Source: Deltaproteobacteria bacterium
GTDB lineage: Bacteria; Myxococcota_A; UBA796; GCA-2862545
Length of the DNA: 40,000 bases
Direction: 5' to 3'
Assembly (NCBI GenBank): GCA_006226595.1
Contig: SBGP01000043.1
Coordinates: 70,832 to 110,831, forward strand
Below, in pieces: positions 13,873-40,000 of this stretch. The notes below the pieces were generated by a model. The model searched no databases and was not told the origin of the DNA. It worked only from the letters and a program-made list of their open reading frames with translations. Positions within the stretch are counted from its first letter, which is position 1, and the number at the start of each line of letters is the position of its first letter. The position numbers and the translations under genes were made by a program.

Positions 13873-13883
13873 CTGGCACTCCT

Positions 13884-14573
13884 TCACGCTTGGAAGGGCA
13901 ACTCTACCGTCGGGTGCCGGTCGGCGTACTCGCGAATGCCCTCGTTGCGAAGCAAGCACGCGGGACAGGAACGACAGCCCGCATGGGGAATGCCCTCGTA
14001 GCAGGTGATGGTCCGGTCGAGCAGGTACTCGAGCACTCCGTGCTCCGCCGCCAACTCGAGTGTGTCCACCTTGGTCATCGCCACCACAGGTGTGCGAATC
14101 TCAAACTCCGAGTCCCCGAAGTCCATGCGCAGAATCTGCTGCATCAGGTCCATGTACGCTCGCGAGCAGTCCCGGTACCCAGAGTTCGCGCTCTCGATTT
14201 CGATCACGCCCATGTAGATGCAGTGCGCGCCGAGGTGGTTGGCGTGGATGCCCGCGACACGAGCCATGAGGCCGTTTCGGCCCTGCACGAGTGTGTTCGG
14301 TGGAGAGCCGAGGGCGTGCTGGATGGCGATGCTCGAGTCCGTCAACGCGTTGACCGTGACCTCCGCCAGGCAGGTGATCGGAACGACCGTGTGGTCGACT
14401 CCCCACTTCTCGCAAATCTCCTGCGCTCGTTGGAGCTCGACGCTGTGCCGCTGCCCGTACCTGAACGACATGGAGAGGACGTGTTCGGCTCCGAACTCTC
14501 GGATGGCCACAGCGAGGCAGATCGAGGAGTCCATGCCTCCCGAGTGAACGACGACTGCGTGCTTCGGGGTCAT
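13884..14573 (-). CDS. queC: divergent QueC-family PP-loop ATPase (7-cyano-7-deazaguanine synthase paralog), 229 aa
   Basis: Track ORF trimmed to 'MTPKHAVVVHSGGMDSS' (SGGxDS PP-loop). Also 'FRYGQRH', 'GYRDCS' and the C-terminal Zn cluster 'CYEGIPHAGCRSCPACLLR'. It differs from the second copy at otherwise conserved stretches, for example 'LVQGRNGLM' against 'YVPARNTVF'. Confidence 0.85.
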   Translation of the reverse strand: MTPKHAVVVHSGGMDSSICLAVAIREFGAEHVLSMSFRYGQRHSVELQRAQEICEKWGVDHTVVPITCLAEVTVNALTDSSIAIQHALGSPPNTLVQGRNGLMARVAGIHANHLGAHCIYMGVIEIESANSGYRDCSRAYMDLMQQILRMDFGDSEFEIRTPVVAMTKVDTLELAAEHGVLEYLLDRTITCYEGIPHAGCRSCPACLLRNEGIREYADRHPTVELPFQA

Positions 14574-14592
14574 GACAGCTTCCACGATGGAG

Positions 14593-15750
14593 CTACTGTG
14601 CCGGTGAGGGCGAGACACCGCGCTGAGCGCCCCAGCGGAGGAAGCCCTCCGGGTCGCCCTGCACCGCGGCGAGCAACTCCGCGGGGATGACCCCTGCACG
14701 GAGCTTCACCACGACCGGATCCTGCCCGAGCACCTCGGCTGCCCGCTCGAGCGTGTCCACGCTCAGCGGCTTGGCGCCGCTCTCCACTCGAGAGAGGTAC
14801 GAGTTTCCGATCGCGAGGCGGTCGGCCATCTCGCTCTGGCTGATATTGCGAGCCAGGCGCTGGGCCTTCAGCCAGGTGCCGAAGTCCTCGGCTTCCTTGG
14901 TGGGCGAGGTCTGCAGGGCCAAGCGGCCCTGGGCGTCGTCAGCGTCTTCCGCCGACCAGCTCAGGGCGGCAAAGGCCGAGTGATTGTGGATGGACTCAAA
15001 GTTCTCGGCGGCCACGTGGACCTCGTGTACGCCCTCGAGCTTGCGAACCGCGGTCACCACATCGCGGACAAGGTCCTCGACGAACTTTGGGTTCTCGTAG
15101 GCCTTCTCGGTGACCCACTTTTCGTCCTCTCGCTTGAGCAGCGCATAGAGCGGCGAGGAGCCGCAGGCTTCGACCGCCTCGACCACGTCCTCGATCCACA
15201 CGAGCTGGCGTGACCGGAGCTTCACCTGGATCAGGCTTCGCTGGTTGTGGGCACCGTACTCGCTGATGGACTTCGAGCACGGGCAGAGGCTCTTTACCGG
15301 AACGGTGACCCGGAGTTCGAAGTCCTCCACAGGCCCCCGTCGGGAAGCCTTGAAGCCGCAGTGGTACTCCATCAGCGAGCGTGCCCGGCTCACGGGAGCC
15401 TCCTTCTCGATGAAGTAGGGGAACGTCATCTCGATGAACGCGTCGTCGGCCTCCAGCTCGCGCTGGACCTGGGCGAGAATCCCGCCGATGTTCCGGATGG
15501 TGAGTTCGCCGCGCACCTGATTGAGGATCTGGACGAAGCGACTCATGTGCGTGCCCTTCTGATCCGCCGGGAGGCCCACGCACATCTCGATCTGGGCCAC
15601 CGTGCCCTGCATCTGGTTCTGCTTGTCCATGACCTGGATGGGGTAGGACAGGCCGCGGATGCCGACGCGCTCGATGGCGATTCCGCGCTCGTCTGACTCG
15701 CTCGCGTGGTCGGGAAGGTCAGCGAAGAGGTTCAGGGACTCGGACATCAT
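14593..15750 (-). CDS. folE2: GTP cyclohydrolase FolE2 (type IB) fused to a C-terminal XRE/Cro-type HTH domain, 385 aa
   Basis: Start at the ATGATG at 15750, overlapping the queE stop. FolE2 body: 'GIRGLSYPI', 'KGTHMSRF', 'SLCPCSKSISEYGAHNQRS', 'ENFESIHNHSAFA'. The C-terminal 96 aa (14593-14883) contain 'FGTWLKAQRLARNISQSEMADRLAIGNSYLSRVESGAKPLSVDTLERAAEVLG'. Confidence 0.9.
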   Translation of the reverse strand: MMSESLNLFADLPDHASESDERGIAIERVGIRGLSYPIQVMDKQNQMQGTVAQIEMCVGLPADQKGTHMSRFVQILNQVRGELTIRNIGGILAQVQRELEADDAFIEMTFPYFIEKEAPVSRARSLMEYHCGFKASRRGPVEDFELRVTVPVKSLCPCSKSISEYGAHNQRSLIQVKLRSRQLVWIEDVVEAVEACGSSPLYALLKREDEKWVTEKAYENPKFVEDLVRDVVTAVRKLEGVHEVHVAAENFESIHNHSAFAALSWSAEDADDAQGRLALQTSPTKEAEDFGTWLKAQRLARNISQSEMADRLAIGNSYLSRVESGAKPLSVDTLERAAEVLGQDPVVVKLRAGVIPAELLAAVQGDPEGFLRWGAQRGVSPSPAQ

Positions 15751-16388
15751 GGGATCCCGATGAGCTTGTGGGTCTGAAGGGACAGGCGCCATTTGGGATT
15801 GGCCAGGCAGTAGCGGGTGGCGGCTTCGATGTTGGCCGCGGTCCGTCCTTTGGCGTCCATGGGCTGCAGGAAGAAGTGCTCGAAATCGAGGTGCTCGAAG
15901 TCAGTGGGGCTAAGCTCGGGCTGAGGGTAGACGAGCTTCAGTTCGTGGCCCTCGGTCTGGACGATCTCGGAGCGAGGCTTCGGGCTCACGCAAATCCAGT
16001 CCACGCCGGCAGGAACCTTACCGGTCCCGTTGGTCTCCAGGCCGACTTCGATTCCGGCGGCGTGGCAGGCGTCGACGAGTTTCTTGTCCAGTTGGAGCGT
16101 GGGTTCACCGCCCGTGAACACCACGTAGGGGACGCCCCCGCTGCACTCCTCGTCCCAGCAGCGACGAAGGTGATGTGCGAGTTCCGCGGCATCGCGGAAC
16201 TTCCCGCCGCCCGGGCCGTTCGTGCCCACGAAATCCGTGTCACAGAAGCGACAGGCTGCGGTGCTGCGATCCTCCTCGCGACCGCTCCACAAGTTGCAGC
16301 CCGCGAAGCGGCAGAAGACCGCGGCTCGGCCCGCGTGGCCACCCTCACCTTGGAGCGTCAGGTAGACCTCTTTGACCGCGTACGCCAT
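15747..16388 (-). CDS. queE: 7-carboxy-7-deazaguanine synthase QueE (radical SAM), 213 aa
   Basis: 'EVYLTLQGEG', the cluster motif C-x14-C-x2-C ('CNLWSGREEDRSTAACRFC'), 'VVFTGGEPTLQ' and the C-terminal 'RLSLQTHKLIGIP'. Confidence 0.93.
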   Translation of the reverse strand: MAYAVKEVYLTLQGEGGHAGRAAVFCRFAGCNLWSGREEDRSTAACRFCDTDFVGTNGPGGGKFRDAAELAHHLRRCWDEECSGGVPYVVFTGGEPTLQLDKKLVDACHAAGIEVGLETNGTGKVPAGVDWICVSPKPRSEIVQTEGHELKLVYPQPELSPTDFEHLDFEHFFLQPMDAKGRTAANIEAATRYCLANPKWRLSLQTHKLIGIP

Positions 16389-16391
16389 CGG

Positions 16392-17087
16392 CTATGCCAC
16401 CGAGACGTAGCGAGTTGGGTCTGCCATACCGACTTCCTCGAAGCCATCGCGTCGGAGAATGCACGCATCGCACGTCCCACAAGCCACCCCGTCGGACGAC
16501 GGCGCGTAACAGGAGTGGGTGAGCTGGTAGGGGACACGGAGCTCGCGGCCGATGGCGATGATCTCGGCCTTGGTCTTGTCGATCAGGGGTGCATGCACGC
16601 GGATGTGCTGCCCCTCGACGCCGGGCTTGATGGCGAGGTTGGCCATGGCCTCGAAGGCATGGATGTACTCGGGGCGGCAGTCGGGGTAGCCGGCGTAGTC
16701 GAGCGCGTTGACGCCGATGAAGAGGTCGGAGGCCTCGTAGACCTCCGCCACGCCAAGCGCGTACGACAGGAAAACCGTGTTTCGGGCGGGCACGTAGGTG
16801 ACCGGAATCTGGCTCGTCATCTGTTCGAGCGTGCGCGACTTCGGCACGTCGATGTTGTCCGTGAGGGCGGAGCCGCCGATTTGCCGGAACATGCCCACGT
16901 CGAAGATGAGGTGCTCGACGACGTTGTAGTGCTGGGCGATCGCCATGGCGGCTTCGAGCTCGACCCGGTGGCGCTGGTCGTAGTTGTACGACACGACGAC
17001 CGGCTCAAAACCCTGGTCAATGGCCATCGCCAGGCAGGTGGCGGAATCGAGTCCACCGCTGAGCAGGATCACCGCACGCTTCCCCAT
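16392..17087 (-). CDS. queC: 7-cyano-7-deazaguanine synthase QueC (canonical-looking copy), 231 aa
   Basis: Trimmed to '[19 protein letters not shown]'. Also 'YNYDQRH', '[12 protein letters not shown]', 'GYPDCRPE' and the Zn site '[21 protein letters not shown]'. Confidence 0.93.
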
Positions 17088-17172
17088 GTCGACCTCCGAA
17101 GTGGCTTGGGGTATACCGGCGTTGCCCGGTCGAGTCAACGGCCATTTTCCCTGTCAGGTCAACGGAGAGAAC
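17088..17172. promoter_or_regulatory. Divergent queC / queD control region with a direct repeat GTCAACGG x2
   Basis: An 85-bp gap separates divergent starts at 17087 (-) and 17173 (+). GTCAACGG occurs at 17134-17141 and 17158-17165, 24 bp apart. The second copy abuts the queD SD (GGAGAG). No promoter hexamers could be assigned confidently. Confidence 0.35.
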
Positions 17173-17601
17173 ATGGTCACCGTCACCCGCCGCCTCGAGT
17201 GGGACGCCATGCACCGCATCCCGCTGCACGAGAGCAAGTGCAGGGCCTTTCACGGTCATCGCTACGTGGCCGAGATCACCTGTGTGGCGCCTCAGCTGGA
17301 CGAGCTCGGCCGCGTGGTGGACTTCGGGGTCATCAAGTCGCTGGTGGGGACCTGGATCGACGACCACTGGGACCACACTGCCATTCTGATGAGTGGCGAC
17401 CCGGAGGCGACGCCGATCGCCGAGGCCAACGAGCGACTGGGGAGGCCGGTCTACTGGATGAAGGCTCACCCCACCGCGGAGAACATCGTCAGCGAGCTCG
17501 CGGGGGTCGCGCAGCGTCTGCTTGACCCCACGGGGGTGACAGTCGTTCGGATTCGACTGTGGGAGACGCCCAACGGGTCGTCCGAATGGACCCTTGGGTG
17601 A
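17173..17601 (+). CDS. queD: 6-carboxy-5,6,7,8-tetrahydropterin synthase QueD, 142 aa
   Basis: Track ORF 16984..17601 trimmed to 'MVTVTRRLEWDAMHRIP'. Zn/catalytic motif 'CRAFHGHRY', 'VVDFGVIK', 'DHWDHTAIL' and 'RLWETPN'. Confidence 0.92.
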   Translation: MVTVTRRLEWDAMHRIPLHESKCRAFHGHRYVAEITCVAPQLDELGRVVDFGVIKSLVGTWIDDHWDHTAILMSGDPEATPIAEANERLGRPVYWMKAHPTAENIVSELAGVAQRLLDPTGVTVVRIRLWETPNGSSEWTLG

Positions 17602-17678
17602 GTGCTCGGCGCCGGTCTCCATGAAGAGATGCTGCGGGTCGCTGGTTGTGCTTGGTAGCATCGCGGTCTGGAGACCCG

Positions 17679-19040
17679 ATGACCTCGAACCTTGAACTCG
17701 TTGAAGCGCTTCGCGTTTGCTGCGCTGGTGCACTGCCATCACTCGTGCGATCCGTCGAGGACGTGCATGACCTTGCGGTTTGGGGCATGGCACATCCTGA
17801 CCCGGAGGTAGCTCGCGATGCTGCGAGCTTGGCGGGATGGTTCGCCTCCGTGTCTCGGGTTGAAGCGGCGCTTCGCGAACTCGTGGCGGAGACCCTGGAC
17901 TCGCAGGTGTTGGTGGCCGCCAACGTCTCACTCGGCGAGTTTTCGGACCTCGACACGGTCGAACTTGCTGCGGCGATTGAAGACCGGGTCGACGTTGCCG
18001 CGCGTGCTGTGTGGACCACCCTCGCCTGGCACGATGAGTACGTGGACGACGCAGTGGCCATCGTGAGTGAATGGGGTGCCGTGGAGGAGTTGGCGAAGCT
18101 CGCCTGGGACTGCGGCGAGCGGGCGGAGCGCGCTGCCCCTTTGCTCGCGCGCAGGCAGGAACCGGAGGCTCTGGAGGCGCTTGAGTGCGTCCTCGACGGG
18201 GGAGACTACGCGGCTCTCTACGCACTGCGAGATGGACTCGCGCTGCGCGAAGACCCGCGTTCGATCGGGATCCTGCTCACTACCTGGGACTCAATGGTTC
18301 GGGGGGACGAGTGTGGAGCTGACTGCGCGGAAGAGGCCACTGCGCTCGTGTTGTCCCTCGGTTCGACAGCCGAGGGGCGCGATGAACTGGTCCGAGCCGC
18401 GGAAGTTTCGTCGACTGCTGTACTGGCTAGGAGTTTTCTTGCCGCGCTCGAGGGGACACCAGACACACTCGCGGAGTTTCGCTCAGAACTCGAAGGCGAG
18501 GATCCCGATCTCTATCCGGGCGCTGCGCTCCTCGAAGGCCGTGAACTGTACTGCTCACAGCTCTCGGGGCCGGACCTGCTTGAGCAGCGGCAGCCGGCGT
18601 GGTGGAGCCTTGGGAAGCGGGCCGAAGGCGACATCTCCCCCATCCCGTCGGTCCAGATCACAAAGGCCGCCTGGCGATGGCTTGAACCCGTCCAGGAGGA
18701 CCAGGAAGTCAGCGAATGGGTTGACGCGCCAGAGATCGCGACCCTCGGAGAGTTTGCCGTGCGATGGGTCGGCGCCCTACAGGACCGTGCCATCGAGAAG
18801 TTCGTGATCGAGGGCCGTGAGCAGATCGACTACATCGAGCCCATCCGCGACGCGTGGCGCGAGCTCGACTTTCCGAAGGGGGTGTTTGAGGCCTCGCCTG
18901 GTCAAGTGGACCCGGCATGGGCCCGGGCGCTCTGGCGAGCCAGCCGCATCCTTCCGGGCGATCCAGAGTGGTGGCTCGCCTGGCTGGTCTGGACCCTCTC
19001 CGAACCACACAGCGCCGTAGATTCTCGCTTGGGCGACTGA
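17679..19040 (+). CDS. hypothetical acidic protein, 453 aa (464 aa if the TTG at 17646 is used)
   Basis: Track ORF 17646..19040. The ATG at 17679 is preceded by GGAGA. The protein is helical, Leu/Ala/Glu-rich and Trp-rich at the C-terminus ('PEWWLAWLVWTL'). No recognisable domain. It lies 77 nt downstream of queD on the same strand. Confidence 0.6.
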   Translation: MTSNLELVEALRVCCAGALPSLVRSVEDVHDLAVWGMAHPDPEVARDAASLAGWFASVSRVEAALRELVAETLDSQVLVAANVSLGEFSDLDTVELAAAIEDRVDVAARAVWTTLAWHDEYVDDAVAIVSEWGAVEELAKLAWDCGERAERAAPLLARRQEPEALEALECVLDGGDYAALYALRDGLALREDPRSIGILLTTWDSMVRGDECGADCAEEATALVLSLGSTAEGRDELVRAAEVSSTAVLARSFLAALEGTPDTLAEFRSELEGEDPDLYPGAALLEGRELYCSQLSGPDLLEQRQPAWWSLGKRAEGDISPIPSVQITKAAWRWLEPVQEDQEVSEWVDAPEIATLGEFAVRWVGALQDRAIEKFVIEGREQIDYIEPIRDAWRELDFPKGVFEASPGQVDPAWARALWRASRILPGDPEWWLAWLVWTLSEPHSAVDSRLGD

Positions 19041-19062
19041 CTGCTTCTCCACCGCAGGACAG

Positions 19063-20163
19063 TCAGGTGTTCGCCTGATCCCGCACCCACCGTTGATACT
19101 GGCGAGTCAGGTGGTTCGCGAGGAGGTTTACGTCCTGGCTGGTGTTCTGCACGTCATCCCAGCGTCGCTTCACATCTCCACCGAAGTCCCAGTAGCCCTC
19201 GTTCCAGCGACAGTGAGGCTTGATCCCGGCCAAGTGGGTGGTGAAGTCCTCTTCGGTCGGCCAGCGGTCCCGGAACCCATCGGAGATGGCGTCCATCAGG
19301 AAGCCGAGGGTGACCACACCGGCGCCGTGAAGCAGACGGGACTGGCGCGGCTTCAGATCCCAAAGCTCCGGCCACGTGCGACGGACAGCCGACCAGTACC
19401 CAAACAGGACTTGCTGCATCACCGTCTGGGCCTGGTCCGTTTCAAGCAGGCGGATGCGGTACAGGACGCCGTCCGACAGGCTGTTCTCGAGGAAGCGCAG
19501 GATCGAGTTGTCCTTGATCTTGGCGCCCGGGTTCGTGGCCGTGGAGATGGCCTGGTACAGCGGGGAGTCTTCCCGATGGTTGAGGACCTCGAGGATCGAA
19601 GCGGGCAACTTCCGCTTGTCGAGGTGGCTCGGCATCCGGGCGTCGACGCCCGGGAGAAGCTCGTAGATGAGGTTCTTCGGTAGCGGCTTGGTCGAGTTCA
19701 CCAGCATGAACTGCTCTCGGGCTTCCGAGTCCGACTCGGCGACGAAGCCGATCGCGAACATCGGGAAAGTCTCGACCCTGGCCTCGCGAATCGCGGCGAT
19801 CCGCTGCTGCCCATCCACGATCCAGCCCACCTTGTCCTCGGGGTCGACCGGGACCTTCAGGACGCCATGGGTACTTGCGCCATCCGCAGAGCTACCGGTG
19901 GGTTCGAAGCGCACTCGGGAATCGAAGGCTAGCACCAGGGCGTTCGGCACCATGGGCTCCTCACTCTCCACGTACGCTCGGATCTCCGCGATGTGCTTGC
20001 GCACCTCGGGCCGCTGGTAGCCGAGCAAGCGTCCGTCCTCGTCTCGGGACACTCGGGAGACCGAGGCGAAGGTGGGAATCGACTTCGCGTCTACGCCGAA
20101 GGCGTAGATGGTCTTGCCGGGGCTCTGGCTCAACGCCAGGGCGGGGATGTCCAAGACAGTCAT
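19063..20163 (-). CDS. dpdB: DGQHR-domain (DndB/DpdB-like, ParB-fold) protein, copy 1, 366 aa
   Basis: Trimmed to 'MTVLDIPALAL...' (ATG 20163, ATGA overlap with the dpdA stop). Motifs: 'SVSRVSRDEDGRLLGYQRPEVRKHI', 'GWIVDGQQRIAAI', 'FMLVNSTKPL', 'YWSAVRRTWPELWDLKPRQSRLLHGAG'. Confidence 0.8.
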   Translation of the reverse strand: MTVLDIPALALSQSPGKTIYAFGVDAKSIPTFASVSRVSRDEDGRLLGYQRPEVRKHIAEIRAYVESEEPMVPNALVLAFDSRVRFEPTGSSADGASTHGVLKVPVDPEDKVGWIVDGQQRIAAIREARVETFPMFAIGFVAESDSEAREQFMLVNSTKPLPKNLIYELLPGVDARMPSHLDKRKLPASILEVLNHREDSPLYQAISTATNPGAKIKDNSILRFLENSLSDGVLYRIRLLETDQAQTVMQQVLFGYWSAVRRTWPELWDLKPRQSRLLHGAGVVTLGFLMDAISDGFRDRWPTEEDFTTHLAGIKPHCRWNEGYWDFGGDVKRRWDDVQNTSQDVNLLANHLTRQYQRWVRDQANT

Positions 20164-21431
20164 GTGGAGCTTTCCTCGAGTGCGGAACGGTGTGCGTGTA
20201 GCACTTGTTGGGTGTGCCAGAGGTTGTGGAAGCCTCGGCGGCGGTTCCTGTTGGCGCCGCGGAAGACGATGACGTCGATGCCGAGGTCGCGGCAGACCGC
20301 ACACGGGCAGTTCTCCCAGGGACGGTCGGTGAGGGTCCGGCGGATGCGGTCCCACCTGGACGCTCCGCCGTACAACTCCTCGTAGGCCTGGAGATGCCCA
20401 AGGGCCTCGTCGACGCTGGTCGTGCCCTCACCTACGCCCTTCACGGCGTCCTGGCACGCGCGTTCTTTCCTGAACGCCTCCTGCTGGTTGACGGCGCCGC
20501 TGCGGATGGCTCGAAGCAACTTCGAATACTTGTCGGCCTGCGGGATGCGGACGGCGGTGTAGTGGCCGAGGGGGTCGGAGGAGTAGTAGTTGTTGCGGGC
20601 ATCCTTGAAGGCCTGGCGCATCGGAGAGGCGCTGTCCAGGCTCACCACACCAGCTCGCGTGTACGCCTGGAAGTTCTCCAAGCGGGTGATGCCGAACAAG
20701 TGGAGGCGCAGTCGACCTTGGGTGACGCCCCGGACTGCCTCCAGTACCTCCAGGATCTGGTCGGTCTTCAACGGGACCAGACCCCCGAGAGCCACGTAGT
20801 CGTAGCCCATGGCGATCAGCTGCTCGACCGCGCGCGAATAGGAGCGCGGCGACCAGCCCTGGGCAATTCCAACCGGCTGGAAGTCATAGTTGCCGGCTCG
20901 GACCTTCCGCAGAAACTCGGCGGCGAGCGTGAGCGTCAGGTCGAATCGCTGCTGGAACTCGGGAGGAACGGCGTTGCCGAGCAGCCCTGGTTCATCGAGC
21001 TCTGGACTATAGGCGCCAATCATGTGGTCGACGGACACGCCGTGCGTGAACTGGCCTGCTTCGTAGAAGTCGATCACCTCGTCCACCGAGTAGGGTGGCT
21101 CCGGTAGATCTCGGTAGTTGAAGGCACCGCAGTCGCCGAGCAAAGGCCAGTCTGCGGGCTCGAACTCGGGTTGCGTCGGGAAGCGCAGGAACCGACGCGC
21201 GCCGTTCCTCATGAAGCGTAGGCGTTGGGCCTGGGTGTAGCGGCCTTGGACGCCGTCCATGTCGAGCAGGAACTTGCTGACCAGGAGGCCGTCGTACGGA
21301 CGCTCCGGCGCCATGAGCTCGTGCGCATACACGTCGTCCCGCTGCGGGATGCGGTCCCGGGGCGAGGTTTCGGTCTCGAAGTCGAAGCGAGGGTCGACGA
21401 GGTCGAGTGCGTCAGCGTAGAAAAACCGCAT
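20160..21431 (-). CDS. dpdA: DpdA, TGT-fold DNA 7-deazaguanine (preQ0) transglycosylase, 423 aa
   Basis: TIM-barrel TGT-like features: 'YDYVALGGLVP', 'LHLFGITR', 'VSLDSASP' and the Zn knuckle 'CPCAVCRDLG...NRRRGFHNLW'. It sits between DGQHR genes next to preQ0 biosynthesis genes. Confidence 0.85.
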   Translation of the reverse strand: MRFFYADALDLVDPRFDFETETSPRDRIPQRDDVYAHELMAPERPYDGLLVSKFLLDMDGVQGRYTQAQRLRFMRNGARRFLRFPTQPEFEPADWPLLGDCGAFNYRDLPEPPYSVDEVIDFYEAGQFTHGVSVDHMIGAYSPELDEPGLLGNAVPPEFQQRFDLTLTLAAEFLRKVRAGNYDFQPVGIAQGWSPRSYSRAVEQLIAMGYDYVALGGLVPLKTDQILEVLEAVRGVTQGRLRLHLFGITRLENFQAYTRAGVVSLDSASPMRQAFKDARNNYYSSDPLGHYTAVRIPQADKYSKLLRAIRSGAVNQQEAFRKERACQDAVKGVGEGTTSVDEALGHLQAYEELYGGASRWDRIRRTLTDRPWENCPCAVCRDLGIDVIVFRGANRNRRRGFHNLWHTQQVLHAHRSALEESST

Positions 21432-23529: not shown

Positions 23530-23719
23530 GTGGGTCTGCAGTTATGTGTTCACGCGTCTCCGTAAATCGCTGAGCCCGCAATCCGCAGTGGTCCGCAGTT
23601 GAAAGGCCGCCGGAGGTCTATGTAGAACTCCCCCCAGGGTTGAGGGGACGAGATGGCTGTGCTCGCGCGCCGACATCGCTTCTGGTGGGTTCCGTTCCGC
23701 CGGCTGAGCAGGTGTTCTA
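23530..23719. promoter_or_regulatory. Divergent control region between the modification (-) and helicase/ATPase (+) operons, with tandem TCCGCAGT repeats
   Basis: This 190-bp gap looks like one of the more AT-rich stretches of the island by eye. 'aTCCGCAGTggTCCGCAGTtg' lies at 23581-23600, with a third partial copy 'TCTGCAGTT' at 23535-23543. A candidate -35 'TTGAAA' at 23599-23604 follows immediately. A candidate minus-strand 'TTTACG-16-TAACTG' lies near 23540-23567. Confidence 0.4.
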
Positions 23720-33400: not shown

Positions 33401-33774
33401 TGCACGTGAAGCTTCAGAATGTGCTCGAGATCGCTCGTGAGCGAGGACTCGGACTCGAGCCTCAGAGGCAACTCAAACGAGCCCTAGAGGCCGTTGAAGG
33501 TGACGACCTGGCGGAAGCGAGAGGCCGCCTTGCGGCAGTTTCGGGCCGACCGGCGGAGATACCCCCATACGAACTCGCCCGGGCTTCGACCCCAGCTGTG
33601 GTGAAGCTCGTGGCGCTTCTAGACGCGGCATCCTCTCTCATGGATGCTGTGGAGCCCCTTTTGGACGTCGCATCCCACGTCGGTGGAAGCGCTGCTGAGG
33701 CGTACCGGCGGGAGGTCGACGGCCTGCTCGGTGCTTTCGTCGAGTGGACGGCCCCTGAGTTGGGGGCCAGATGA
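30430..33774 (+). CDS. large P-loop NTPase, 1114 aa, with an internal Pro/Gly/Ser linker (DpdH position)
   Basis: Track ORF 30367.. trimmed to 'MRELQRYWPE' (ATG 30430, 8-nt overlap with the upstream stop). Walker A 'ITGRSGCGKSHFIVWL'. Walker-B-like 'ELVFLAEDFSVL'. The linker 'PGTGSSPGAGLSPGPSPSPSPGAGHSPGPSPSPGAGQSPRPSPGAAPRPGAGSTPTPGAGPGQGG' is followed by a ~400-aa helical C-terminal region. Confidence 0.7.
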   Translation: MRELQRYWPERVQGTSIINADADVIQEPSVVLATHQEVTLLKQSVDLVAGDGAQGVEVSEEEFLDYFLQDCDNANMLAPITGRSGCGKSHFIVWLEARLLRRDDADRRHIIRIPKGASFRSVIRRILADLRGDAYTELHERVKRAGNSLTTKAAREWVVAGVNIALDNIHADLTGALERYAEVQRTDEVKARIRDLQQRLRHATGLQALLSDNLFKRDHFFAEGQAIDRIAVRIVHGKKRSADPIEFQVAAEDFVLPEELERLVSTSAGAPAQAYYQWLMGETQRNRDKRALAAQVMNQALDLAIPRVLQLGDNELNEVLRAIREQLEEEGRELVFLAEDFSVLAGIQGALLDAMTVPRGGAGRPLCVMRTALAVTDGYISERDTIATRARFQFRMPERVVDQETIVDFVAEYLNAERHGTVDLNAWYREQADGPSSPLLPPLEIVDLDREYLDAFGYSTRGIPLFPLSRTAIREILRVKLRTEGGGLVFHPRTIVNHVLIEVFKNHARSFAHGQFPPAAFELYKERPLDSMAPLLTSQVMRLAPTHSDGQRWLVLLRFWGGAPIDMTEARSLNARVYEAFGLPVLPGTAVNQVGPGTSAAEGSGRRSAEVLMPISGPSVDAPTPGTGSSPGAGLSPGPSPSPSPGAGHSPGPSPSPGAGQSPRPSPGAAPRPGAGSTPTPGAGPGQGGTPAEPIQQWDRVLTEWRNGAMLPTEQANLLRTWVLGLVLRHVDWEAEGLRQPVASLGAQKKVWLGEAAAGGIAEGACHIRVGGLEVDTDADRHGLHLALQGLVRFELGGWRFDFENADVLYEHLMARLATWHAQFVEWYRASCPDLVVAEVKLLSALAVIERGSMMTLEDVGDLFERHRSNAGGPVAWRDLHHALDFERASRIDLLLGLVGIFQGGHVDARQNQQLLALDGWRILCAMEGLEPSVCPEISGLSKNKTYQRNTEEAAREVAKRWTHALAAQRSWLRMQSERVLTSIPADAGSLHVKLQNVLEIARERGLGLEPQRQLKRALEAVEGDDLAEARGRLAAVSGRPAEIPPYELARASTPAVVKLVALLDAASSLMDAVEPLLDVASHVGGSAAEAYRREVDGLLGAFVEWTAPELGAR
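32296..32500. repeat. Low-complexity coding repeat (about 36-bp imperfect unit 'tggggcgggtca[c/g]agcccg[g/a]ggccgagtccgagtcc', about 3 copies at 32322-32432)
   Basis: Read directly from the sequence. It encodes the PG/SP linker of the P-loop protein. Confidence 0.8.
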
Positions 33775-34496
33775 ACATCGTCGAGCGAGCCGAAAGAATC
33801 GAGCGGCTCAACAGGCACAGGACCGATCAGGAAGTGCTGTCCACCCGGTTGGGTGCCGTTCAGGGACATTGGAACACAGTCGCCGAAGACTTGGGCGAAC
33901 TGCAACGCCAGCTGGATGGGCTAGCGTTGCTGGCTCGCGAGGGCGTGTTGGTACGTGAGCTCCCGCTTTCGCTGGCGGACGCTCAAGGCCGTTGCAGGAT
34001 TCTTCGCGAGCAGGTGGCTCACGATAGCGAACTGACGCTTGAGGGTCGTGCATTCAAGGCTGTGGCGGATGCCGTGAGGCAGGCACACACTGATCTCGAG
34101 GCATACGCCACTTCGGAGTGGGCGGACTTTGTTCGGCAATCCGCGCCGCCAATGCGCGCGGCGGAGGTCGAGGCGGATCGCGATCACGTCGATCCGGTCC
34201 GAAGGAAGTGCGCGCGCGAGCTTCACGGGGCTCTTCTAGCCTACGAGGGGCTTGCCGCCCGCGTGCCCTCCTCCGAAGTTCGCTTCCGGGAATTCGAGAC
34301 CGCGCGTGCTTCCGTCGACCCACCGCTCCAGGCCTTCCGGAGTGCGTCCGACTTGCCCGCCGATGTCGAGGCGTTCTTCCAGAAGGCGAACAGTACAAGT
34401 GGGGCCTTGCTTTCCGATCTCACGCCAAAGGTCAGCAAATGGCTTGTGGACAACGGTCGCGAGGACCTCTTCCGAATCCGAGCGACCAATGACTGA
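33771..34496 (+). CDS. hypothetical helical protein, 241 aa (DpdI position)
   Basis: Complete track ORF with an ATGA overlap upstream. Coiled-coil-like composition. Confidence 0.6.
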   Translation: MNIVERAERIERLNRHRTDQEVLSTRLGAVQGHWNTVAEDLGELQRQLDGLALLAREGVLVRELPLSLADAQGRCRILREQVAHDSELTLEGRAFKAVADAVRQAHTDLEAYATSEWADFVRQSAPPMRAAEVEADRDHVDPVRRKCARELHGALLAYEGLAARVPSSEVRFREFETARASVDPPLQAFRSASDLPADVEAFFQKANSTSGALLSDLTPKVSKWLVDNGREDLFRIRATND

Positions 34497-37400
34497 GTCA
34501 ATCGATGTCGATCTGGCTGTGCTGACCGGCTTCCTCGACCTCGTCGAGCACCACGAGCGCCAACTCCTCTCTTGGGGCGTCATCGAGGGTGCGCACAGCC
34601 GGGACGAGTTGGAGGGCCTGGCCTCTGAGCACCTCGTCAGGTGCGGTCTGGAGGAGGACATTGACCCAGAGGACCTCGTCCACGAACTCGTTCATCGGAG
34701 GATGCTCTACGAGCCTGCGGAAGGGAGGTTGCGTTCGCGTGCGGCAGAGTCCGTTCGGCTATTCGCCTCGTTGCGGCGTATGTTCCCAAAGCATCGGACA
34801 ACGCCAGGGGCTTGGAGGGCGGCGCCGCCTCTGGTCGCCGACTTCCGATTTGCCTCACAGCCGCGTCGGTACCCCGAACGGCGAATTCCTTCCGAACGCG
34901 TGCTTTCCGACCTCGAACTCGATGACGATGTGCGGCGGATCCTCGCGGAGTTGCTGGCACGCGGACCAGGGTACAGGTTCGCCGGTTTCCAGGTTGATGC
35001 GATCCGACAGATCCTCTCCGATCTTTCGTCGGGGCGTGACCGAGGTGACGTCATCTGCGCCGGGACCGGTAGTGGAAAGACGCTCGCGTTCTACCTCCCC
35101 GTCCTGGCCCACATCGGTGCGACCATCACAGCCGAGCGATTCGCTCGGGCCATTGCGGTTTATCCAAGAAATGAGCTCCTCAAGGATCAGTTCTCGGAGA
35201 CCTGGGCCGAGGCCCGCCGATTGGACACACTATTGAGGGAGCGCGGGTCGCGCCCGCTCGTGATCGGCGCCTATTTTGGGCAGACCCCGGAAGCTGTGGG
35301 GAGCCTGTCGGGCAAGCAGTCATGGCGGCGTTCGAGAGACGGCTGGGTGTGTCCATACTTCCGTTGTCCTACTGAGGGGTGTACCGGTGACATGTGCTGG
35401 TCGTCCGATGACGCCAAAGCAAACCGACATCGGTTGGTTTGTTCGCGCTGTGACACGGAGACCCCAGAGGGGCTGCTTGTTCTGACACGAGAGCAGATGC
35501 GAGCAACTCCGCCTGACGTGTTGTTCGCCACCACGGAAATCCTCAATCGTTCGATGAGCGACGACCGCGCCGGTCGAGTCTTTGGAATGTTCGGGGCCCC
35601 AGCTCCAGACGTTCTTCTATTGGACGAGGTCCATACCTACGCTGGCATACACGGGGCACAGGTGGCCTATCTGTTGCGTCGCTGGCGTCACGCGCTTGGT
35701 GCGCCGGTCACCTTCGTTGGTCTGTCGGCCACGTTGCGTCAGGCACCGCGGTTCTTCGCCCAGTTGACCGGGGTGGACGAGAGCGCGGTGACGCTTCTTC
35801 AGGCATCGGAACAGGACATGGTGGAGGAGGGGAGCGAGTACCAGCTTGTATTGCGGGGAGAGCCAGCGTCGGGAGTCAGTCTTGCCTCAACCACGCTGCA
35901 GACGGCCATGCTGCTACGCCGTATTCTGGAGCCCAGCCAGAATCCGTTCTGCCCGGAATTGTTCGGCTCCAAGGTCTTCCTGTTCACGGACGACCTCGAC
36001 GTGACGAACCGTCTGTTCTTCGACCTCCAGGATGCCGAGGGGCGCAACCACTTTGGGCGGCCGGATCCAGCTGCGACCGGGCCGCTGGCAGCTCTCCGTG
36101 CGAAAGGCGATGACCCCCGGGAACGGCACGAGCGGGGGCGCAACGGTCAGTGGTGGGGCCTATGCGAGGAGATCGGCCATGACTTGGGACCTTCCGGGCG
36201 CTTGGATGTCGGTCGCACGTCATCGCAAGACGCCGGTGTCGGGCCTGACTCCGACGTCATCGTCGCCACCGCCTCACTAGAAGTCGGCTACAACGACCCC
36301 GAGGTCGGCGCTGTACTTCAGCACAAGGCTCCGCGAGACGCGGCGCAGTTCCTTCAGCGCAAGGGGCGCGCTGGGCGACGGCGCTCCATGCGACCTTGGA
36401 CCGTGGTGGTGCTATCTGATCATGGCCGCGACCGCGCGGCCTACGAGCAATACGAGAGCCTGTTCGATCCGGCCCTGGAAGAGCGGACGCTGCCGCTCGC
36501 GAACCGGCATGTTCTAAGGATCCAGGCGGGGTACACCTTCCTCGACTGGGTTGCGCGTCGTTCAGAAATCAGCCTTCCAGGCTCGGTATGGCGGGATCTC
36601 GCGGGACCTCCGACCGTCCACCAATCCGGTCACGTTGCGGCAGGCAAGGAGAGGCAGCGCGAGGAGTTGGCCCTTCTGGAGCGCCTCCTCGCAGATTCAG
36701 TCCTCCGTGACGAACTCGCCGCCTACGTCGGCGCGGCTCTGGGGCTCGAGCCGGATGAGGTCGTGCCTCTCCTTTGGCTGCCGCCGAGGTCACTTCTCCT
36801 CGCCATGATCCCGACCGTTCGCCGACGTCTCGATACCGCGTGGAGGCGGCTTGCTGACGGGGGTGAAGAACCGGGTGGGGACTACCAAATTCGATACAAC
36901 CCTGCGCCGGATTTCGTTCCCGCCAGCCTATTTGGAGAGCTCCAACTCCCAGAGGTGACCATTGAGACCCCAGCCGCCATTCGCGGCGAGGACCCTGAAC
37001 ACTTCACCATGCCATTGCGGCAGGCGTTGTCGACCTTTGCGCCAGGTTCGGTCAGCTTCAGGTTCACCATCAAACACGCCTACGCCTGGCATTGGATAGC
37101 ACCTCCAGACCCAAGCTTGTCGACGTCACAAGACTTGGATCTAGAACCCATCCTGATGGGGCACACGGAGTTGGGCTCCTTCGCTTGGTCCGACGAGAGG
37201 GGTGACGAGTACCAAGTTCGCTGCATCCGTCCATGGGGACTGCGAGTCACGAAGGTGCCTCGCCAGCAGATTCATCAGTCCTCGAACAGCTCTTTGGTCT
37301 GGCACACCGAAGTCCTTCCGCGTTCTCTCCCGGACGCACATTCACCTCCGCGAGGAACAGAGTGGGCGGGCCTTGTCCGCGATGTCCGGTTTCACACGCA

Positions 37401-39018
37401 CGCAGAGAATCGGAGTGTCGAGATTCGCCGTTTCTCCACGGCAGCAGAAGCTGATCTGCTCGGTATGGACGGAACGCGGAGGACCCCGACGGTCAACTTC
37501 ACCGATAGTCGGGGTAGCCCTTTGGCGCTCGGGTTCACTGGTGCGGTCGACGCTGTTTGCATCAGCGTGGACGTTGGAGCCCTGTCGAAGCTAGCCACCG
37601 ATTGGACAGCCTCGCCGGCGGCCGCTTCCCTGCGTCGCAGGTTGTACCTTCAACGCGTACAGGAGAGCCAGGCGCTTGGACCCTGCGGCTCCTTTGTGCG
37701 CACGCACCTCTCCCAAGTGTACTTCGCAGCCCTGACGGAGCGCGCCAAGATTGATGCCACGGGACTCGCGGATGCCCAGAACGGTCTGCGAGGCGGGAAC
37801 GTCGGCAGTGCTCTTTGGCGAGTCGCCCAGGAGCTCTTTGCCTCCGATACCGCGAGCACGGCGGATGCTCGTCGCGCACTGGTCGACTTGGCGGACTTGT
37901 TGCGGCAGCCGCGAGTGCAGGATGGGTTGGCGGTGGCGGCCGAGGTTCTCTGGTCCACTCCGGACCCGATTGACACTCGGCACTTCGTGGAAGACGTGTT
38001 GATCGCCACGCTGGGTAGCGCATTCCTAGAGGCTGGTCTGAGGCTTTGTCCTGAGTTCGCGGCCGGGGATTTGATCCTGGATCTCGATGCTGGACCCACT
38101 CGTCGCGGCGAGCTCGAAGGAGTCGCCGAAGTCTGGCTCACCGAGGGTACGCTCGGTGGCGGCGGCGTCGTGGAGGAGTTGGCCCGCCGCTTCGCGAACG
38201 ACCCTCGCCGATTTTTCGCTCTGGCCGCGAGGGCTCTGTCCCCTGGCGAGGATGAACTCACGGATGGAGAGCTTCGGCGGATTCTCGAGCTCGCAGGTAC
38301 GGACACTGTCCTCGCAGACGGCTTGAAGGGAGTACGGGCCGCATCGAATCACAATTCGACGAGAACGGCTCTGGGAGTTGTCCGGGACCGGCTGGCTGAT
38401 GCAGACATCTCGACGTCCCATGCCGTCATGTCGGCGCTGAATCGCCGGCTGCTCAGGCCCGGGAGTTCAGCGAACACGGACGCGTTGTGTCGTGATTTGC
38501 TCTCCGAATGGCAGAGTCTGGAGGAGCGCTGGGGCGTAGAGGTGGACGTTCGCACCTGGTCCCATCTCTGTCGGCTGGATGGGCGCGTCGATGTCGCGTT
38601 GCCAGGAGCCGTACCGGCAGATGGCCTCCCTCTTTGGCGGGCAGACGTCGTTCAGAGTCTTCTCTGGCCAACGGGCGGTGTGGTCAGGGGGCGGCCGCTG
38701 ATGTCTTGGAACCCCTACGCCGAGCTCCCGGCGGCGGAACCACTCCTCCTTCGTCCGTGGTTCGACGCCGCCCACCCGGCGATTAAAGCCGGGGCACTGG
38801 AGGCCGTGACACGGGTGCGGCTGCGATTGGCAGAGACTGGTATCGCTCGGGTGACGGCGCCGGTTCGCGAGGGTGATGGGCTAGGCAAGATCATTCGAGA
38901 GGTCTGCACGACGCCGGTGGATTGCGGCTTCTTGCAGGTCTGGCCGGTGCTCTCCGGTCTGACCCGTGCGGGTGCTGAGCTGGTGGCCGAGTTCGAGCTC
39001 CAGGAGGTGGCGCTGTGA
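34489..39018 (+). CDS. dpdJ: large DEVH-box superfamily-2 helicase, 1509 aa, with an inserted Zn-ribbon and a long C-terminal extension (DpdJ-type)
   Basis: Track ORF 34252.. trimmed to 'MTESIDVDLAVL' (ATG 34489, 8-nt overlap with the upstream stop). Motif I 'VICAGTGSGKTLAFYLPVL', II 'VLLLDEVHTYAG', III 'VGLSATL', V/VI 'VATASLEVGYNDPEVGAVLQH...FLQRKGRAGRR'. Cys4-type insert 'CPYFRCPTEGCTGDMCW...LVCSRCDTE' at about 35344-35460. Confidence 0.8.
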   Translation: MTESIDVDLAVLTGFLDLVEHHERQLLSWGVIEGAHSRDELEGLASEHLVRCGLEEDIDPEDLVHELVHRRMLYEPAEGRLRSRAAESVRLFASLRRMFPKHRTTPGAWRAAPPLVADFRFASQPRRYPERRIPSERVLSDLELDDDVRRILAELLARGPGYRFAGFQVDAIRQILSDLSSGRDRGDVICAGTGSGKTLAFYLPVLAHIGATITAERFARAIAVYPRNELLKDQFSETWAEARRLDTLLRERGSRPLVIGAYFGQTPEAVGSLSGKQSWRRSRDGWVCPYFRCPTEGCTGDMCWSSDDAKANRHRLVCSRCDTETPEGLLVLTREQMRATPPDVLFATTEILNRSMSDDRAGRVFGMFGAPAPDVLLLDEVHTYAGIHGAQVAYLLRRWRHALGAPVTFVGLSATLRQAPRFFAQLTGVDESAVTLLQASEQDMVEEGSEYQLVLRGEPASGVSLASTTLQTAMLLRRILEPSQNPFCPELFGSKVFLFTDDLDVTNRLFFDLQDAEGRNHFGRPDPAATGPLAALRAKGDDPRERHERGRNGQWWGLCEEIGHDLGPSGRLDVGRTSSQDAGVGPDSDVIVATASLEVGYNDPEVGAVLQHKAPRDAAQFLQRKGRAGRRRSMRPWTVVVLSDHGRDRAAYEQYESLFDPALEERTLPLANRHVLRIQAGYTFLDWVARRSEISLPGSVWRDLAGPPTVHQSGHVAAGKERQREELALLERLLADSVLRDELAAYVGAALGLEPDEVVPLLWLPPRSLLLAMIPTVRRRLDTAWRRLADGGEEPGGDYQIRYNPAPDFVPASLFGELQLPEVTIETPAAIRGEDPEHFTMPLRQALSTFAPGSVSFRFTIKHAYAWHWIAPPDPSLSTSQDLDLEPILMGHTELGSFAWSDERGDEYQVRCIRPWGLRVTKVPRQQIHQSSNSSLVWHTEVLPRSLPDAHSPPRGTEWAGLVRDVRFHTHAENRSVEIRRFSTAAEADLLGMDGTRRTPTVNFTDSRGSPLALGFTGAVDAVCISVDVGALSKLATDWTASPAAASLRRRLYLQRVQESQALGPCGSFVRTHLSQVYFAALTERAKIDATGLADAQNGLRGGNVGSALWRVAQELFASDTASTADARRALVDLADLLRQPRVQDGLAVAAEVLWSTPDPIDTRHFVEDVLIATLGSAFLEAGLRLCPEFAAGDLILDLDAGPTRRGELEGVAEVWLTEGTLGGGGVVEELARRFANDPRRFFALAARALSPGEDELTDGELRRILELAGTDTVLADGLKGVRAASNHNSTRTALGVVRDRLADADISTSHAVMSALNRRLLRPGSSANTDALCRDLLSEWQSLEERWGVEVDVRTWSHLCRLDGRVDVALPGAVPADGLPLWRADVVQSLLWPTGGVVRGRPLMSWNPYAELPAAEPLLLRPWFDAAHPAIKAGALEAVTRVRLRLAETGIARVTAPVREGDGLGKIIREVCTTPVDCGFLQVWPVLSGLTRAGAELVAEFELQEVAL

Positions 39019-39512
39019 TTCAACAGTTCTCCCTTTCCTCGGGCGCCGAACGTCGCCGCGCGATGCACATGCTGCAATCCTTGCTGGTGGCTGAACTCCT
39101 CGGCACACCAGACGCACTCTTCCTTGCGCTGACAAGTTGGGAGGAGGCGGTGGTGGTCGATAACACCCATGGGGGCTTCTCCACGCTCTGTCCCGACTGG
39201 CCGAGAGGTCCGGTCAGGTTGTCGGCCATCGTGCTGCAGTTTCTACGTCGGGGTCGGGAGGTTCACATCCTCGGACCTGTTGCCGACGCGCCGTTCGTCG
39301 ACCGGCTCCGGCGGGAGGTGGAGCGACTCGGGCTCGATGGCCTTCACTGCCGAGACGTCACCTCGACCGAGAGCGCCATTTGTTCTGCCAGGTTCTCCCT
39401 GGACGGAGATGTGGAGTCGCTGCTTTCTGGTGCTGCTGACGGACGGGTGCGTTTTCAAGCGGATCCCAGCTTGGCGGATGTGAGATGTCGCAACCTCCGG
39501 GAGGCCGAATGA
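39015..39512 (+). CDS. hypothetical protein, 165 aa (DpdK position; no HKD motif seen)
   Basis: Complete track ORF. GTG start in a GTGA overlap with the helicase stop. Confidence 0.5.
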   Translation: MIQQFSLSSGAERRRAMHMLQSLLVAELLGTPDALFLALTSWEEAVVVDNTHGGFSTLCPDWPRGPVRLSAIVLQFLRRGREVHILGPVADAPFVDRLRREVERLGLDGLHCRDVTSTESAICSARFSLDGDVESLLSGAADGRVRFQADPSLADVRCRNLREAE

Positions 39513-40000
39513 GCACGGTGCTTGGCGCGGTGTTCTTCGGTCCGGGCAACCATGCGGCGGGCCATCCGAAGTTGGGCGCGTCGGATTGGCGTGCGGCTTG
39601 CGACCATGTTGGCAGTCACACTGTGGTCCTGCCTCGGGTACACGACAGCGGCGATGTCAGCTGGTATGTGCTCGCGCCTGACGATGTGCACTTCGATGAG
39701 GCTCGTGAGACGGTCACCGCTTTCCTGGGGCACAGCTACTCAGAGTTTCGGGGAGAGGCCGCCGAGCCCGATTCGGCTGATCCCATCGACATCGCCGTGG
39801 ATGAAGCTGCTGGCGGTAGGTGGTTCAGGGTCGCTGTCAGGCAGCAGGACATCGACTCCTCCATTCGGGCCGTGTCCCTGTTGAAAGGATTGCTCGCGGC
39901 TCAGCCGCGAAGGGGACAGGCTCTGCCTCGTCCCATCGGTCGGATGCTTCGCGACATCGAGATGGCTCTTGGAGTGGGACGGTTCGACGAGGCCACGCGT
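39509..40000 (+). CDS. hypothetical protein, N-terminal 164 aa; continues beyond the window end
   Basis: ATG 39509 forms an ATGA overlap with the upstream stop. My translation 'MSTVLGAVFFGPGNHAAGHPKLGASDWRAACDHVGSHTVVLPRVHDSGDVSWYVLAPDD...' stays open to position 40000. It is not in the track because it has no stop. Confidence 0.55.
   Translation, partial: MSTVLGAVFFGPGNHAAGHPKLGASDWRAACDHVGSHTVVLPRVHDSGDVSWYVLAPDDVHFDEARETVTAFLGHSYSEFRGEAAEPDSADPIDIAVDEAAGGRWFRVAVRQQDIDSSIRAVSLLKGLLAAQPRRGQALPRPIGRMLRDIEMALGVGRFDEATR

Follow-up and report, generated by a model that had tools for sequence, protein, structure and literature searches.

A probable complete Dpd 7-deazaguanine restriction-modification system with two DpdB proteins and its own precursor supply on an acquired island of a deltaproteobacterial genome

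We analyzed a 40,000-nucleotide stretch (the window) of contig SBGP01000043.1 from the metagenome-assembled genome (MAG) of a Deltaproteobacteria bacterium (GCA_006226595.1), and found that the region very probably holds a complete Dpd 7-deazaguanine restriction-modification (RM) system, with its own precursor supply, on an acquired island of ~35 kb. Judged by family models and locus comparison, all eleven Dpd families (DpdA to DpdK) are present, and the system is assigned to a recurring Dpd subtype with two DpdB proteins of ancient divergence, one on each side of DpdA. A first-pass annotation of the window had proposed a Dpd-type modification and restriction island composed of a DpdA/B/C half and a divergent helicase-rich operon, and curated models bear this out. 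The locus has a three-part map: a minus-strand string of genes for the precursor 7-cyano-7-deazaguanine (preQ0) extending to position 11972, a plus-strand pair made up of queD and a gene for an acidic protein, and two divergent dpd operons. Genes were called from codon-position GC content, raw lists of open reading frames (ORFs) being crowded with spurious frames because the window is GC-rich, and the calls were checked against the annotation of an identical public contig (Logan SRR8389942_872, 0 mismatches in 32 kb). For comparison, 28 loci were retrieved with DpdA from species-representative genomes (best DpdA identity 50%) and all window proteins were mapped by tblastn; loci are cited below by L numbers, where L030 is a stretch of the source contig that reaches past the window end (its positions 12660-18250 equal window-equivalent 41674-47264).

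The identity of DpdA is central to this assignment. The predicted DNA-guanine transglycosylase (20160-21431, minus strand) scored 504 bits on NF041059 (cut-off 200) and matched a solved DNA-guanine transglycosylase (PDB 7UI4, E=2.5e-110). Aligned to 7UI4, it keeps both catalytic aspartates (GDCGAF, motif at aa 99, and SLDS, motif at aa 264), whose roles have been described for Salmonella DpdA (PMC10164549), and the CxCxxC zinc site is also kept. On models of tRNA-guanine transglycosylase (TGT) it reached 21 bits (tgt_general) and 16 bits, so that the initial view of this TGT-fold protein as DpdA and not a tRNA enzyme was upheld. These scores bear directly on whether the locus is a DNA system at all, or instead a tRNA queuosine/archaeosine pathway or a deazapurine secondary-metabolite cluster lying beside helicases. 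The preQ0 genes are common to tRNA and antibiotic pathways, and the same queD | queC-queE-folE2HTH cassette occurs in a housekeeping context elsewhere (L032, see below). Against this, DpdA has DpdB and DpdC as neighbours and a full DpdD-K operon facing it, and scores as a DNA enzyme, and the island contains no queF, queA, queG or arcS; among the island proteins scanned with family models, none matched queF or tRNA-tgt families. A tRNA or metabolite pathway is therefore effectively refuted by the family scores, and we consider it extremely improbable.

The remainder of the modification operon is also on the minus strand. DpdC (22549-23520) was recognized along its full length by PADLOC model PDLC02817 (E=1.3e-46) and is 26-34% identical to its positional equivalents in most related loci. 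One DpdB gene lies between dpdC and dpdA (21431-22552; NF041060 411 bits, cut-off 300), and a second, encoding a ParB/DndB-like ATPase, lies downstream of dpdA (19063-20163; NF041060 440 bits, cut-off 300; PADLOC 2e-137). This order, read at first pass as a dpdC-position gene followed by a DGQHR protein, a TGT-fold DpdA and a second DGQHR protein, was corroborated by PADLOC and NCBIfam. Both DpdB proteins, one on each side of dpdA, carry a DGQQR motif.

The two DpdB copies are 39% identical to each other, yet each has ~50% identity to the DpdB at the same position in other loci. In a neighbour-joining tree, 30 DpdB sequences split cleanly into two clades, one downstream of dpdA, which holds all single-copy systems sampled, and one between dpdC and dpdA. 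The latter is shared with L002, L004, L007, L010, L011, L016, L019 and L023, the eight two-copy loci from which an upstream DpdB copy of full length and free of stop codons was obtained; the tblastn map places an upstream copy in L009, L024 and L025 as well. The order dpdC-dpdB-dpdA-dpdB recurs in Bacillota, Alcaligenaceae, Dehalococcoidia, Planctomycetota and several Actinomycetota, and each clade is conserved across Bacillota, Alcaligenaceae, Planctomycetota, Actinomycetota and the source MAG. We therefore regard the pair as ancient, given its 39% identity and its two clades conserved across phyla, and a recent duplication was rejected on the same grounds. Nor was the idea that one clade is a decayed copy supported, as both keep ParB/DndB-type core motifs, each with private invariant residues. 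By these comparisons, the DpdB copies are paralogs of long standing that have been maintained as a pair, rather than products of a local duplication. The GATOR-GC survey counted extra copies of dpdB (n=801) more often than of any other dpd gene. Salmonella DpdB has been described as a ParB-like homodimer (PMC10164549); proteins of the two clades may act together here, possibly as a heterodimeric clamp that replaces the Salmonella-type homodimer.

Facing the modification genes across a 199-bp divergent spacer (23521-23719), presumed to be the control region of both operons, is a plus-strand restriction operon in the order dpdE-F-G-H-I-J-K-D. It encodes DpdE, an SNF2/BrxHII-like helicase (23720-27007; NF041062 810 bits, cut-off 500; PADLOC 1e-198); DpdF, a RecQ-like superfamily 2 (SF2) helicase (27004-29526; NF041063 763 bits, cut-off 550; PADLOC 3e-204); DpdG (29526-30437; NF041064 171 bits, cut-off 80; PF28110); DpdH, a BrxC-like P-loop ATPase (30430-33774; NF041065 529 bits, cut-off 450; PADLOC 1e-90); a probable DpdI (33771-34496), so named because of its position, its size and a profile match that is full-length but weak; and DpdJ, a YprA-family DEVH helicase of 1509 aa (34489-39018; NF041067 1631 bits, cut-off 800; PADLOC E=0). 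The helicase and ATPase proteins thus match the DpdE, DpdF, DpdH and DpdJ models above curated cut-offs, as had been anticipated. Motifs I, II, III and VI are kept in the helicases DpdE, DpdF and DpdJ, and the Walker A motif of DpdH is intact (GRSGCGKS). The last two genes in the window encode a DpdK of 165 aa resembling phospholipase D (PLD) proteins (39015-39512; NF041068 53 bits, cut-off 100, E=4e-14; PADLOC 3e-13) and the first 164 codons of DpdD, whose gene is truncated at the window end (39509-40000; NF041061 E=2e-26; PADLOC 8e-24 for the fragment). On the source contig, the full DpdD has 721 aa and scores 478 bits (cut-off 300; PADLOC 5e-72).

Several first-pass statements about this operon need revision. 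Neither a DpdD nor a PLD-type DpdK had been assignable, and both are present: DpdK as a 165-aa protein with a degenerate PLD motif, and DpdD as a gene that had been misframed. The ORF at 39522-39884 had been taken for the eighth gene, and was rejected as being in the wrong frame: its GC content is higher at second than at first codon positions, a non-coding pattern, while dpdD opens at 39509, overlaps the dpdK stop codon as ATGA and stays open to the window end. Of the four proteins once listed as orphans, then, the third gene of the operon encodes a DpdG above its cut-off, two belong to DpdI and DpdK below theirs, and the last is the misframed DpdD. Translational coupling was correctly noted (overlaps of 1-8 nt; all junctions in both dpd operons overlap by 1, 4 or 8 nt), but the count of eight genes was too low, as the operon has at least 10.

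The island also appears to encode its own precursor supply, since GTP cyclohydrolase I (FolE2), QueD, QueE and QueC were all found. On the minus strand are QueC-1, a preQ0 synthase (16392-17087; TIGR00364 204 bits, cut-off 150; PF06508 251 bits); QueE, a radical-SAM 7-carboxy-7-deazaguanine synthase of the Cx14CxxC type (15747-16388; TIGR04508 339 bits, cut-off 240); and FolE2, a GTP cyclohydrolase IB with a C-terminal XRE-type helix-turn-helix (HTH) domain (14593-15747; NF010200 272 bits, cut-off 215; PF02649 and PF01381, HTH_3). QueD, the 6-carboxytetrahydropterin synthase (17173-17601, plus strand), was recognized by PF01242 (86 bits, cut-off 22), scored under the cut-off on TIGR03367 (63 bits against 89) and is 82% identical to QueD of a Polyangiaceae MAG (L036). 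The full pathway proposed at first pass is consequently borne out by family models, through PF01242 in the case of QueD. Its layout was only partly right: the genes are as described, but queD and the acidic-protein gene are on the plus strand, divergent from queC-queE-folE2-queC.

A second, divergent QueC (QueC-2; 13884-14573, minus strand; TIGR00364 171 bits, cut-off 150; PF06508 183 bits) retains the zinc-binding cysteines, is 29% identical to QueC-1 and has an ortholog of 60% identity in the metagenomic island L034, a related island in which this second QueC type recurs. Recent QueC duplication was rejected on the basis of that low identity. The DGQHR protein and QueC, both earlier described as duplicated, do each occur in two copies, but as old paralogs (39% and 29% identity, respectively) and not as duplicates. 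The HTH domain of FolE2 had also been considered a departure from the norm. The fusion is real, but it is not unusual, as it is present in 120 of the 120 best homologs (56-71% identity), with Myxococcales and Polyangiaceae MAGs among the close ones; an unusual fusion was accordingly rejected, one of these homologs being in a housekeeping context. That homolog belongs to a Myxococcales MAG (GCA_002731825.1), in which a queD | queC-queE-folE2HTH cassette (L032 6099-9143) sits among the housekeeping genes aroB, aroQ and efp. Given this context, the preQ0 cassette of the island would be a lineage-typical unit captured by dpd islands, or the reverse.

Within the 85-bp divergent spacer between queC and queD (17088-17172), CCGTTGAC occurs twice, 24 nt apart, and a motif count found these to be the only two copies in the window. 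One copy fits TTGACT-17 nt-TATACC, facing queC-1, and a generic σ70 promoter scan of the divergent regions (queC | queD and dpdC | dpdE) gave no match. The two copies could serve as an operator for the HTH domain fused to FolE2 or be ordinary -35 boxes, a -35 element being the simplest interpretation. GTTGAC/GTCAAC repeats are also found in the equivalent spacers of L032 and L034. No riboswitch or other RNA was matched by Rfam in the preQ0 module.

GC content delimits the island. It is ~72% at the left end of the window and ~64% from ~12 kb onward, with values of 0.62-0.65 within the island compared with 0.70-0.72 outside. The left change falls at ~12.0-12.25 kb on the GC profile. To the right, beyond the window, GC content stays at 0.60-0.64 across two further genes of the restriction operon (encoding a NERD-domain protein and a UvrD-type helicase), with one mixed interval of ~0.67 spanning the boundary, and returns to 0.70-0.72 directly after the 3' end of the helicase gene. 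Because of these two shifts, the island is placed from ~12.0 kb in the window to window-equivalent ~47.26 kb, a span of ~35 kb, and the limits of 13,884-40,000 suggested at first pass were not confirmed. No tRNA or integrase was found at the island edges, and no att-type direct repeat of at least 11 nt is common to both. We conclude that the island was horizontally acquired.

Where HxK…GSxN is expected, DpdK has H-C-R…C-S-A-R(-F), with the catalytic lysine and asparagine replaced, and this decay accounts for both the sub-cut-off score and the earlier failure to recognize a PLD protein. Homologs in the actinomycete loci L006, L011 and L023 have the canonical H-x-K…G-S-M-N-F-T, while the closest relatives (metagenomic P0006, 58% identity, and Alcaligenaceae L004) are without the motif, having lost even the histidine. 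DpdK is therefore probably a member of the family by descent and not an active PLD enzyme, and with its catalytic lysine and asparagine lost, cleavage is likely not performed by DpdK here; the alignments suggest that it is not the cutting enzyme in this sub-lineage. It could be argued from these substitutions, from the motif-less closest relatives and from the low NCBIfam score that the operon is decaying around a dead DpdK, leaving a modification-proficient, restriction-impaired island whose main role would be that of an epigenetic or anti-restriction mark; examples of dpd islands lacking a restriction operon are known, Myxococcota included (GATOR-GC survey). A decaying operon would look different, however. 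All restriction genes other than dpdK are full length, helicase and ATPase motifs are intact, the overlapping junctions are kept and there are no frameshifts. Moreover, the degenerate DpdK has a relative that is 58% identical, and this conservation suggests that a non-catalytic role has been kept, and the Dpd nuclease has never been experimentally assigned (PMC5699537, PMC10164549). We thus judge an impaired restriction half to be improbable and favor a complete system.

Candidates for the missing cleavage function lie just beyond the window, where the NERD and UvrD-type genes continue the operon after dpdD (window-equivalent 41674-47264). The NERD gene starts on the final base of the dpdD stop codon (L030 position 12660). 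Its 1110-aa product carries a NERD domain at the N-terminus and, at the C-terminus, a PD-(D/E)xK domain (marginal Pfam PDDEXK_1) whose cysteines follow the pattern CxxCx5C, and gave no PADLOC, NCBIfam or PDB sequence match; relatives of this protein and of DpdD were sought in metagenome contigs and none were found. The next gene overlaps the 3' end of the NERD gene and encodes a 766-aa UvrD-family helicase lacking a nuclease domain, whose closest solved relative is AddA (3U44, 1.8e-30). Its top NCBIfam matches, RecB and AddA, were far under their cut-offs (addA_Gpos 181 bits, cut-off 708), and the pair fails AddAB family thresholds. Together, the NERD and Fe-S PD-(D/E)xK protein and the RecB/AddA-like helicase are candidate replacement or auxiliary effectors. 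At nearly even probability, though short of it, they instead form an independent AddAB-like defence or repair module that is unrelated to the decay of DpdK. Consistent with such a module, no NERD homolog adjoins the other dpd loci retrieved and the related L004 operon ends at DpdD, the helicase resembles generic GajB/RecB/AddA helicases, and defence systems often cluster, with a methylase-SNF2 gene ~9 kb to the left of this one. The one-base overlap between the NERD gene start and the dpdD stop codon argues otherwise, as does the inclusion of the pair in the same low-GC block, which ends at the 3' end of the helicase gene; PLD nucleases are also occasionally replaced by PD-(D/E)xK nucleases in Dpd-related BRIGADE systems (YprA survey, 10.1101/2025.09.15.676423). 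We rank effector replacement below the independent co-located module. The joint proposal, in which DpdK is non-catalytic, cleavage has passed to the NERD/helicase pair and an obligate DpdB heterodimer loads DpdA, thereby defining a distinct subtype, is tentative and in our estimation rather unlikely.

Several observations weigh against a complete and working Dpd system. The source is an uncultured MAG, and the system is predicted from its genes. DpdC has no Pfam (including DUF6884) or NCBIfam match and was recognized by PADLOC only. DpdI and DpdK match their own Dpd models only, under cut-off: DpdI reached 31 bits on NF041066 against a cut-off of 150 (E=2e-7), albeit collinear over 216 of 239 model positions, had no PADLOC match and no significant match in a PDB sequence search, and aligned with its positional equivalent in L034 at a pairwise E of 0.008. 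The degenerate DpdK motif may mean that the restriction half is impaired or works differently. Published size-exclusion chromatography detected no stable DpdA-DpdB complex (PMC10164549). Finally, no relative of the NERD and UvrD-type genes was found beside any other dpd locus retrieved, so the tie of this pair to Dpd comes from a single operon.

The remaining genes of the island were less informative. Past queC-2, the minus-strand string continues with a 95-aa ORF without family matches (13585-13872), a 214-aa protein of the endonuclease/exonuclease/phosphatase (EEP) fold (12888-13532; PF03372 30.5 bits, cut-off 24.5; no NCBIfam or PADLOC match), a 110-aa ORF (12479-12811; no Pfam or PADLOC match) and, last in the string and at the left-edge GC transition, a 163-aa ORF (11972-12463). 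An EEP nuclease and HTH genes had been said to continue the preQ0 operon; the former is supported by PF03372, whereas the latter amounts to a weak HTH_17 match in the 163-aa ORF, under the cut-off (PF12728 E=0.002). Counterparts of the EEP gene and the small ORFs 3' of queC-2 are absent from related loci (for EEP, by tblastn against the 28 loci).

Following queD is the extra 453-aa acidic protein mentioned at first pass (17679-19040, plus strand; net charge -49), whose presence was confirmed by gene calling. It had no family match in Pfam, NCBIfam or PADLOC, and a word-seeded search yielded no relatives; an exhaustive HMMER search of 1.84 billion representative proteins recovered four. The only full-length relative adjoins a periplasmic-binding-protein gene and has no dpd context. 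Structure prediction (AF2 model, pLDDT 68) suggests a HEAT/ARM-like α-solenoid with a small C-terminal α/β domain, and a fold search returned generic HEAT/ARM repeat-protein matches only. Residues 353-450, the only part conserved among the four relatives, form a small domain without a family model (invariants ATLG…VR…G…D…P…F…G.V.P.WA.AL…E.WL.WL…S.P). The scarcity of relatives, the lack of dpd context for the full-length one and the generic fold led us to reject the protein as a new Dpd component, and it is treated as a passenger and near-ORFan.

To the left of the Dpd island, in host-like DNA of 72% GC ~9 kb away, a minus-strand ORF of at least 1102 aa (2-3307) extends past the left end of the window. 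With an Eco57I/N6-adenine methylase domain at aa 276-381 and an SNF2/ResIII helicase domain at aa 939-1073, it looks like a separate RM- or defence-type fusion gene. A separate low-GC patch (7750-10250; 0.61-0.67), with ~2 kb of host-like DNA (0.70 GC) between it and the Dpd island, contains a 444-aa ORF (8060-9394, minus strand) with MopE-type putative metal-binding motifs. This MopE-motif protein and the close FolE2-HTH homologs from Myxococcales and Polyangiaceae MAGs are compatible with a Myxococcota-like source organism.

We compared the island with the Dpd system of Salmonella enterica serovar Montevideo (Thiaville 2016, Yuan 2018 and Gedara 2023, as summarized in PMC5699537 and PMC10164549). 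The two share the DpdA-K families, the catalytic aspartate pair and zinc site, the divergent arrangement of A/B/C and D-K operons, and location on an acquired island. They differ in that the restriction order is E-F-G-H-I-J-K-D here instead of D-K (J-K-D also occurs in L004, L005, L006, L011 and L023), in the two DpdB proteins flanking DpdA in place of one, and in the in-island preQ0 pathway, second QueC, FolE2-HTH fusion and degenerate DpdK motif. The genes for the acidic α-solenoid, EEP, NERD/PD-(D/E)xK and UvrD proteins are likewise extra to this island.

Closer parallels are the two-DpdB islands of Amycolatopsis taiwanensis (L011), Saccharothrix obliqua (L010), an Alcaligenaceae MAG (L004) and metagenome scaffolds (L034/L035), which have the same order of dpdC, upstream dpdB, dpdA and downstream dpdB with preQ0 genes alongside. 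In contrast to our locus, none has the acidic protein, EEP or NERD/UvrD, DpdB/DpdA identity is only 46-58%, and L011 and L023 retain a canonical HxK DpdK. The L034/L035 island has the same composite layout, with both QueC types, FolE2-HTH and DpdC-DpdB-DpdA-DpdB; QueC-2, QueE, QueD, FolE2-HTH, DpdB-1, DpdA and DpdB-2 are 51-70% identical, the QueC-1-like gene 40% and DpdC 32%. The non-canonical composition claimed at first pass is hence real as a list of features, but the double DpdB, in-island preQ0 genes, FolE2-HTH and second QueC recur elsewhere; the GATOR-GC survey also reports preQ0 genes in many dpd islands. What is specific to this locus or sub-lineage is the decayed DpdK, the acidic protein, the EEP gene with its small ORFs, and the NERD/helicase pair. 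The first-pass remark that deazaguanine modification in a myxobacterium would be worth confirming was similarly weakened. Dpd islands have already been reported there, with six Myxococcota dpd windows in the GATOR-GC survey, grouped with islands lacking the restriction operon, and our DpdA-based retrieval found dpd islands in a Myxococcales MAG and a Nannocystis MAG.

In the Polyangiaceae MAG mentioned above (GCA_016933275.1), a queD | queC-queE-folE2HTH cassette is immediately followed by the gene for a 693-aa protein (L036 11213-13294) that joins a DUF6884 (DpdC-like) domain to a TGT/DpdA-like domain with 38% identity to the window DpdA. Next come genes for a DUF87/HerA-type ATPase and a UvrD helicase, and no DpdB was detected. 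The arrangement is a Dpd-derived hybrid that may be related to BREX-related capture systems (PMC12839542).

Affinities to other defence systems follow known lines. DpdJ is a YprA-family protein like DrmA and DruE, DpdE is BrxHII/DrmD-like and DpdH/I are BrxC-like, in keeping with the DpdE/BrxHII, DpdHI/BrxC and DpdJ/YprA relationships previously reported (10.1101/2025.09.15.676423). Unlike DISARM, BREX and Druantia, the Dpd self-mark is a 7-deazaguanine exchange by a TGT-fold enzyme and not methylation, and the island has no PglX/DrmM methylase. Phage DpdA systems (for example phage 9g, Pseudomonas phage iggy) share a DpdA-family transglycosylase and preQ0 genes, but modify a large fraction of G as anti-restriction and lack DpdB/C and DpdD-K. 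The pair past dpdD recalls AddAB/RecBCD in that the 766-aa helicase is nearest AddA and its 1110-aa partner has a PD-(D/E)xK domain and CxxCx5C pattern like AddB; it departs from them in the helicase lacking a nuclease domain, the NERD domain of its partner and scores far under cut-offs, and is not an AddAB member.

We infer all enzymatic activities from the established biochemistry of the families concerned, the roles of DpdA, B, C and DpdD-K following PMC10164549 and PMC5699537. In the proposed mechanism, FolE2, QueD, QueE and QueC would convert GTP to preQ0, and DpdA would exchange selected guanines of host DNA for preQ0, requiring ATP hydrolysis by the ParB-like DpdB, with the two paralogs presumably acting together. 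DpdC would then hydrolyse the nitrile of DNA-borne preQ0 to an amide, giving dADG. The products of dpdE-F-G-H-I-J-K-D (three SF2 helicases, a BrxC-like ATPase and accessory proteins) would recognize and restrict unmarked DNA, and the nuclease-helicase pair that follows dpdD may provide or reinforce the cleavage lost by DpdK.

Dpd is the largest RM system described. The island leaves the picture of Dpd as such unchanged. It is a clear case of the two-DpdB subtype, which has been counted in surveys, whereas the published biochemistry used a single homodimeric Salmonella DpdB, and it probably places a complete modification and restriction Dpd island in a deltaproteobacterial (Myxococcota-like) MAG, in contrast to the restriction-less Myxococcota grouping of the GATOR-GC survey. 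It also offers a natural experiment: a full, apparently intact Dpd system that has lost its PLD residues and has another nuclease-helicase pair on the same transcript. Only the decayed DpdK motif and the coupled NERD/PD-(D/E)xK-helicase pair could lead somewhere new; if true, the loss of DpdK function, the effector swap and a DpdB heterodimer would amount to a mechanistically distinct Dpd subtype.

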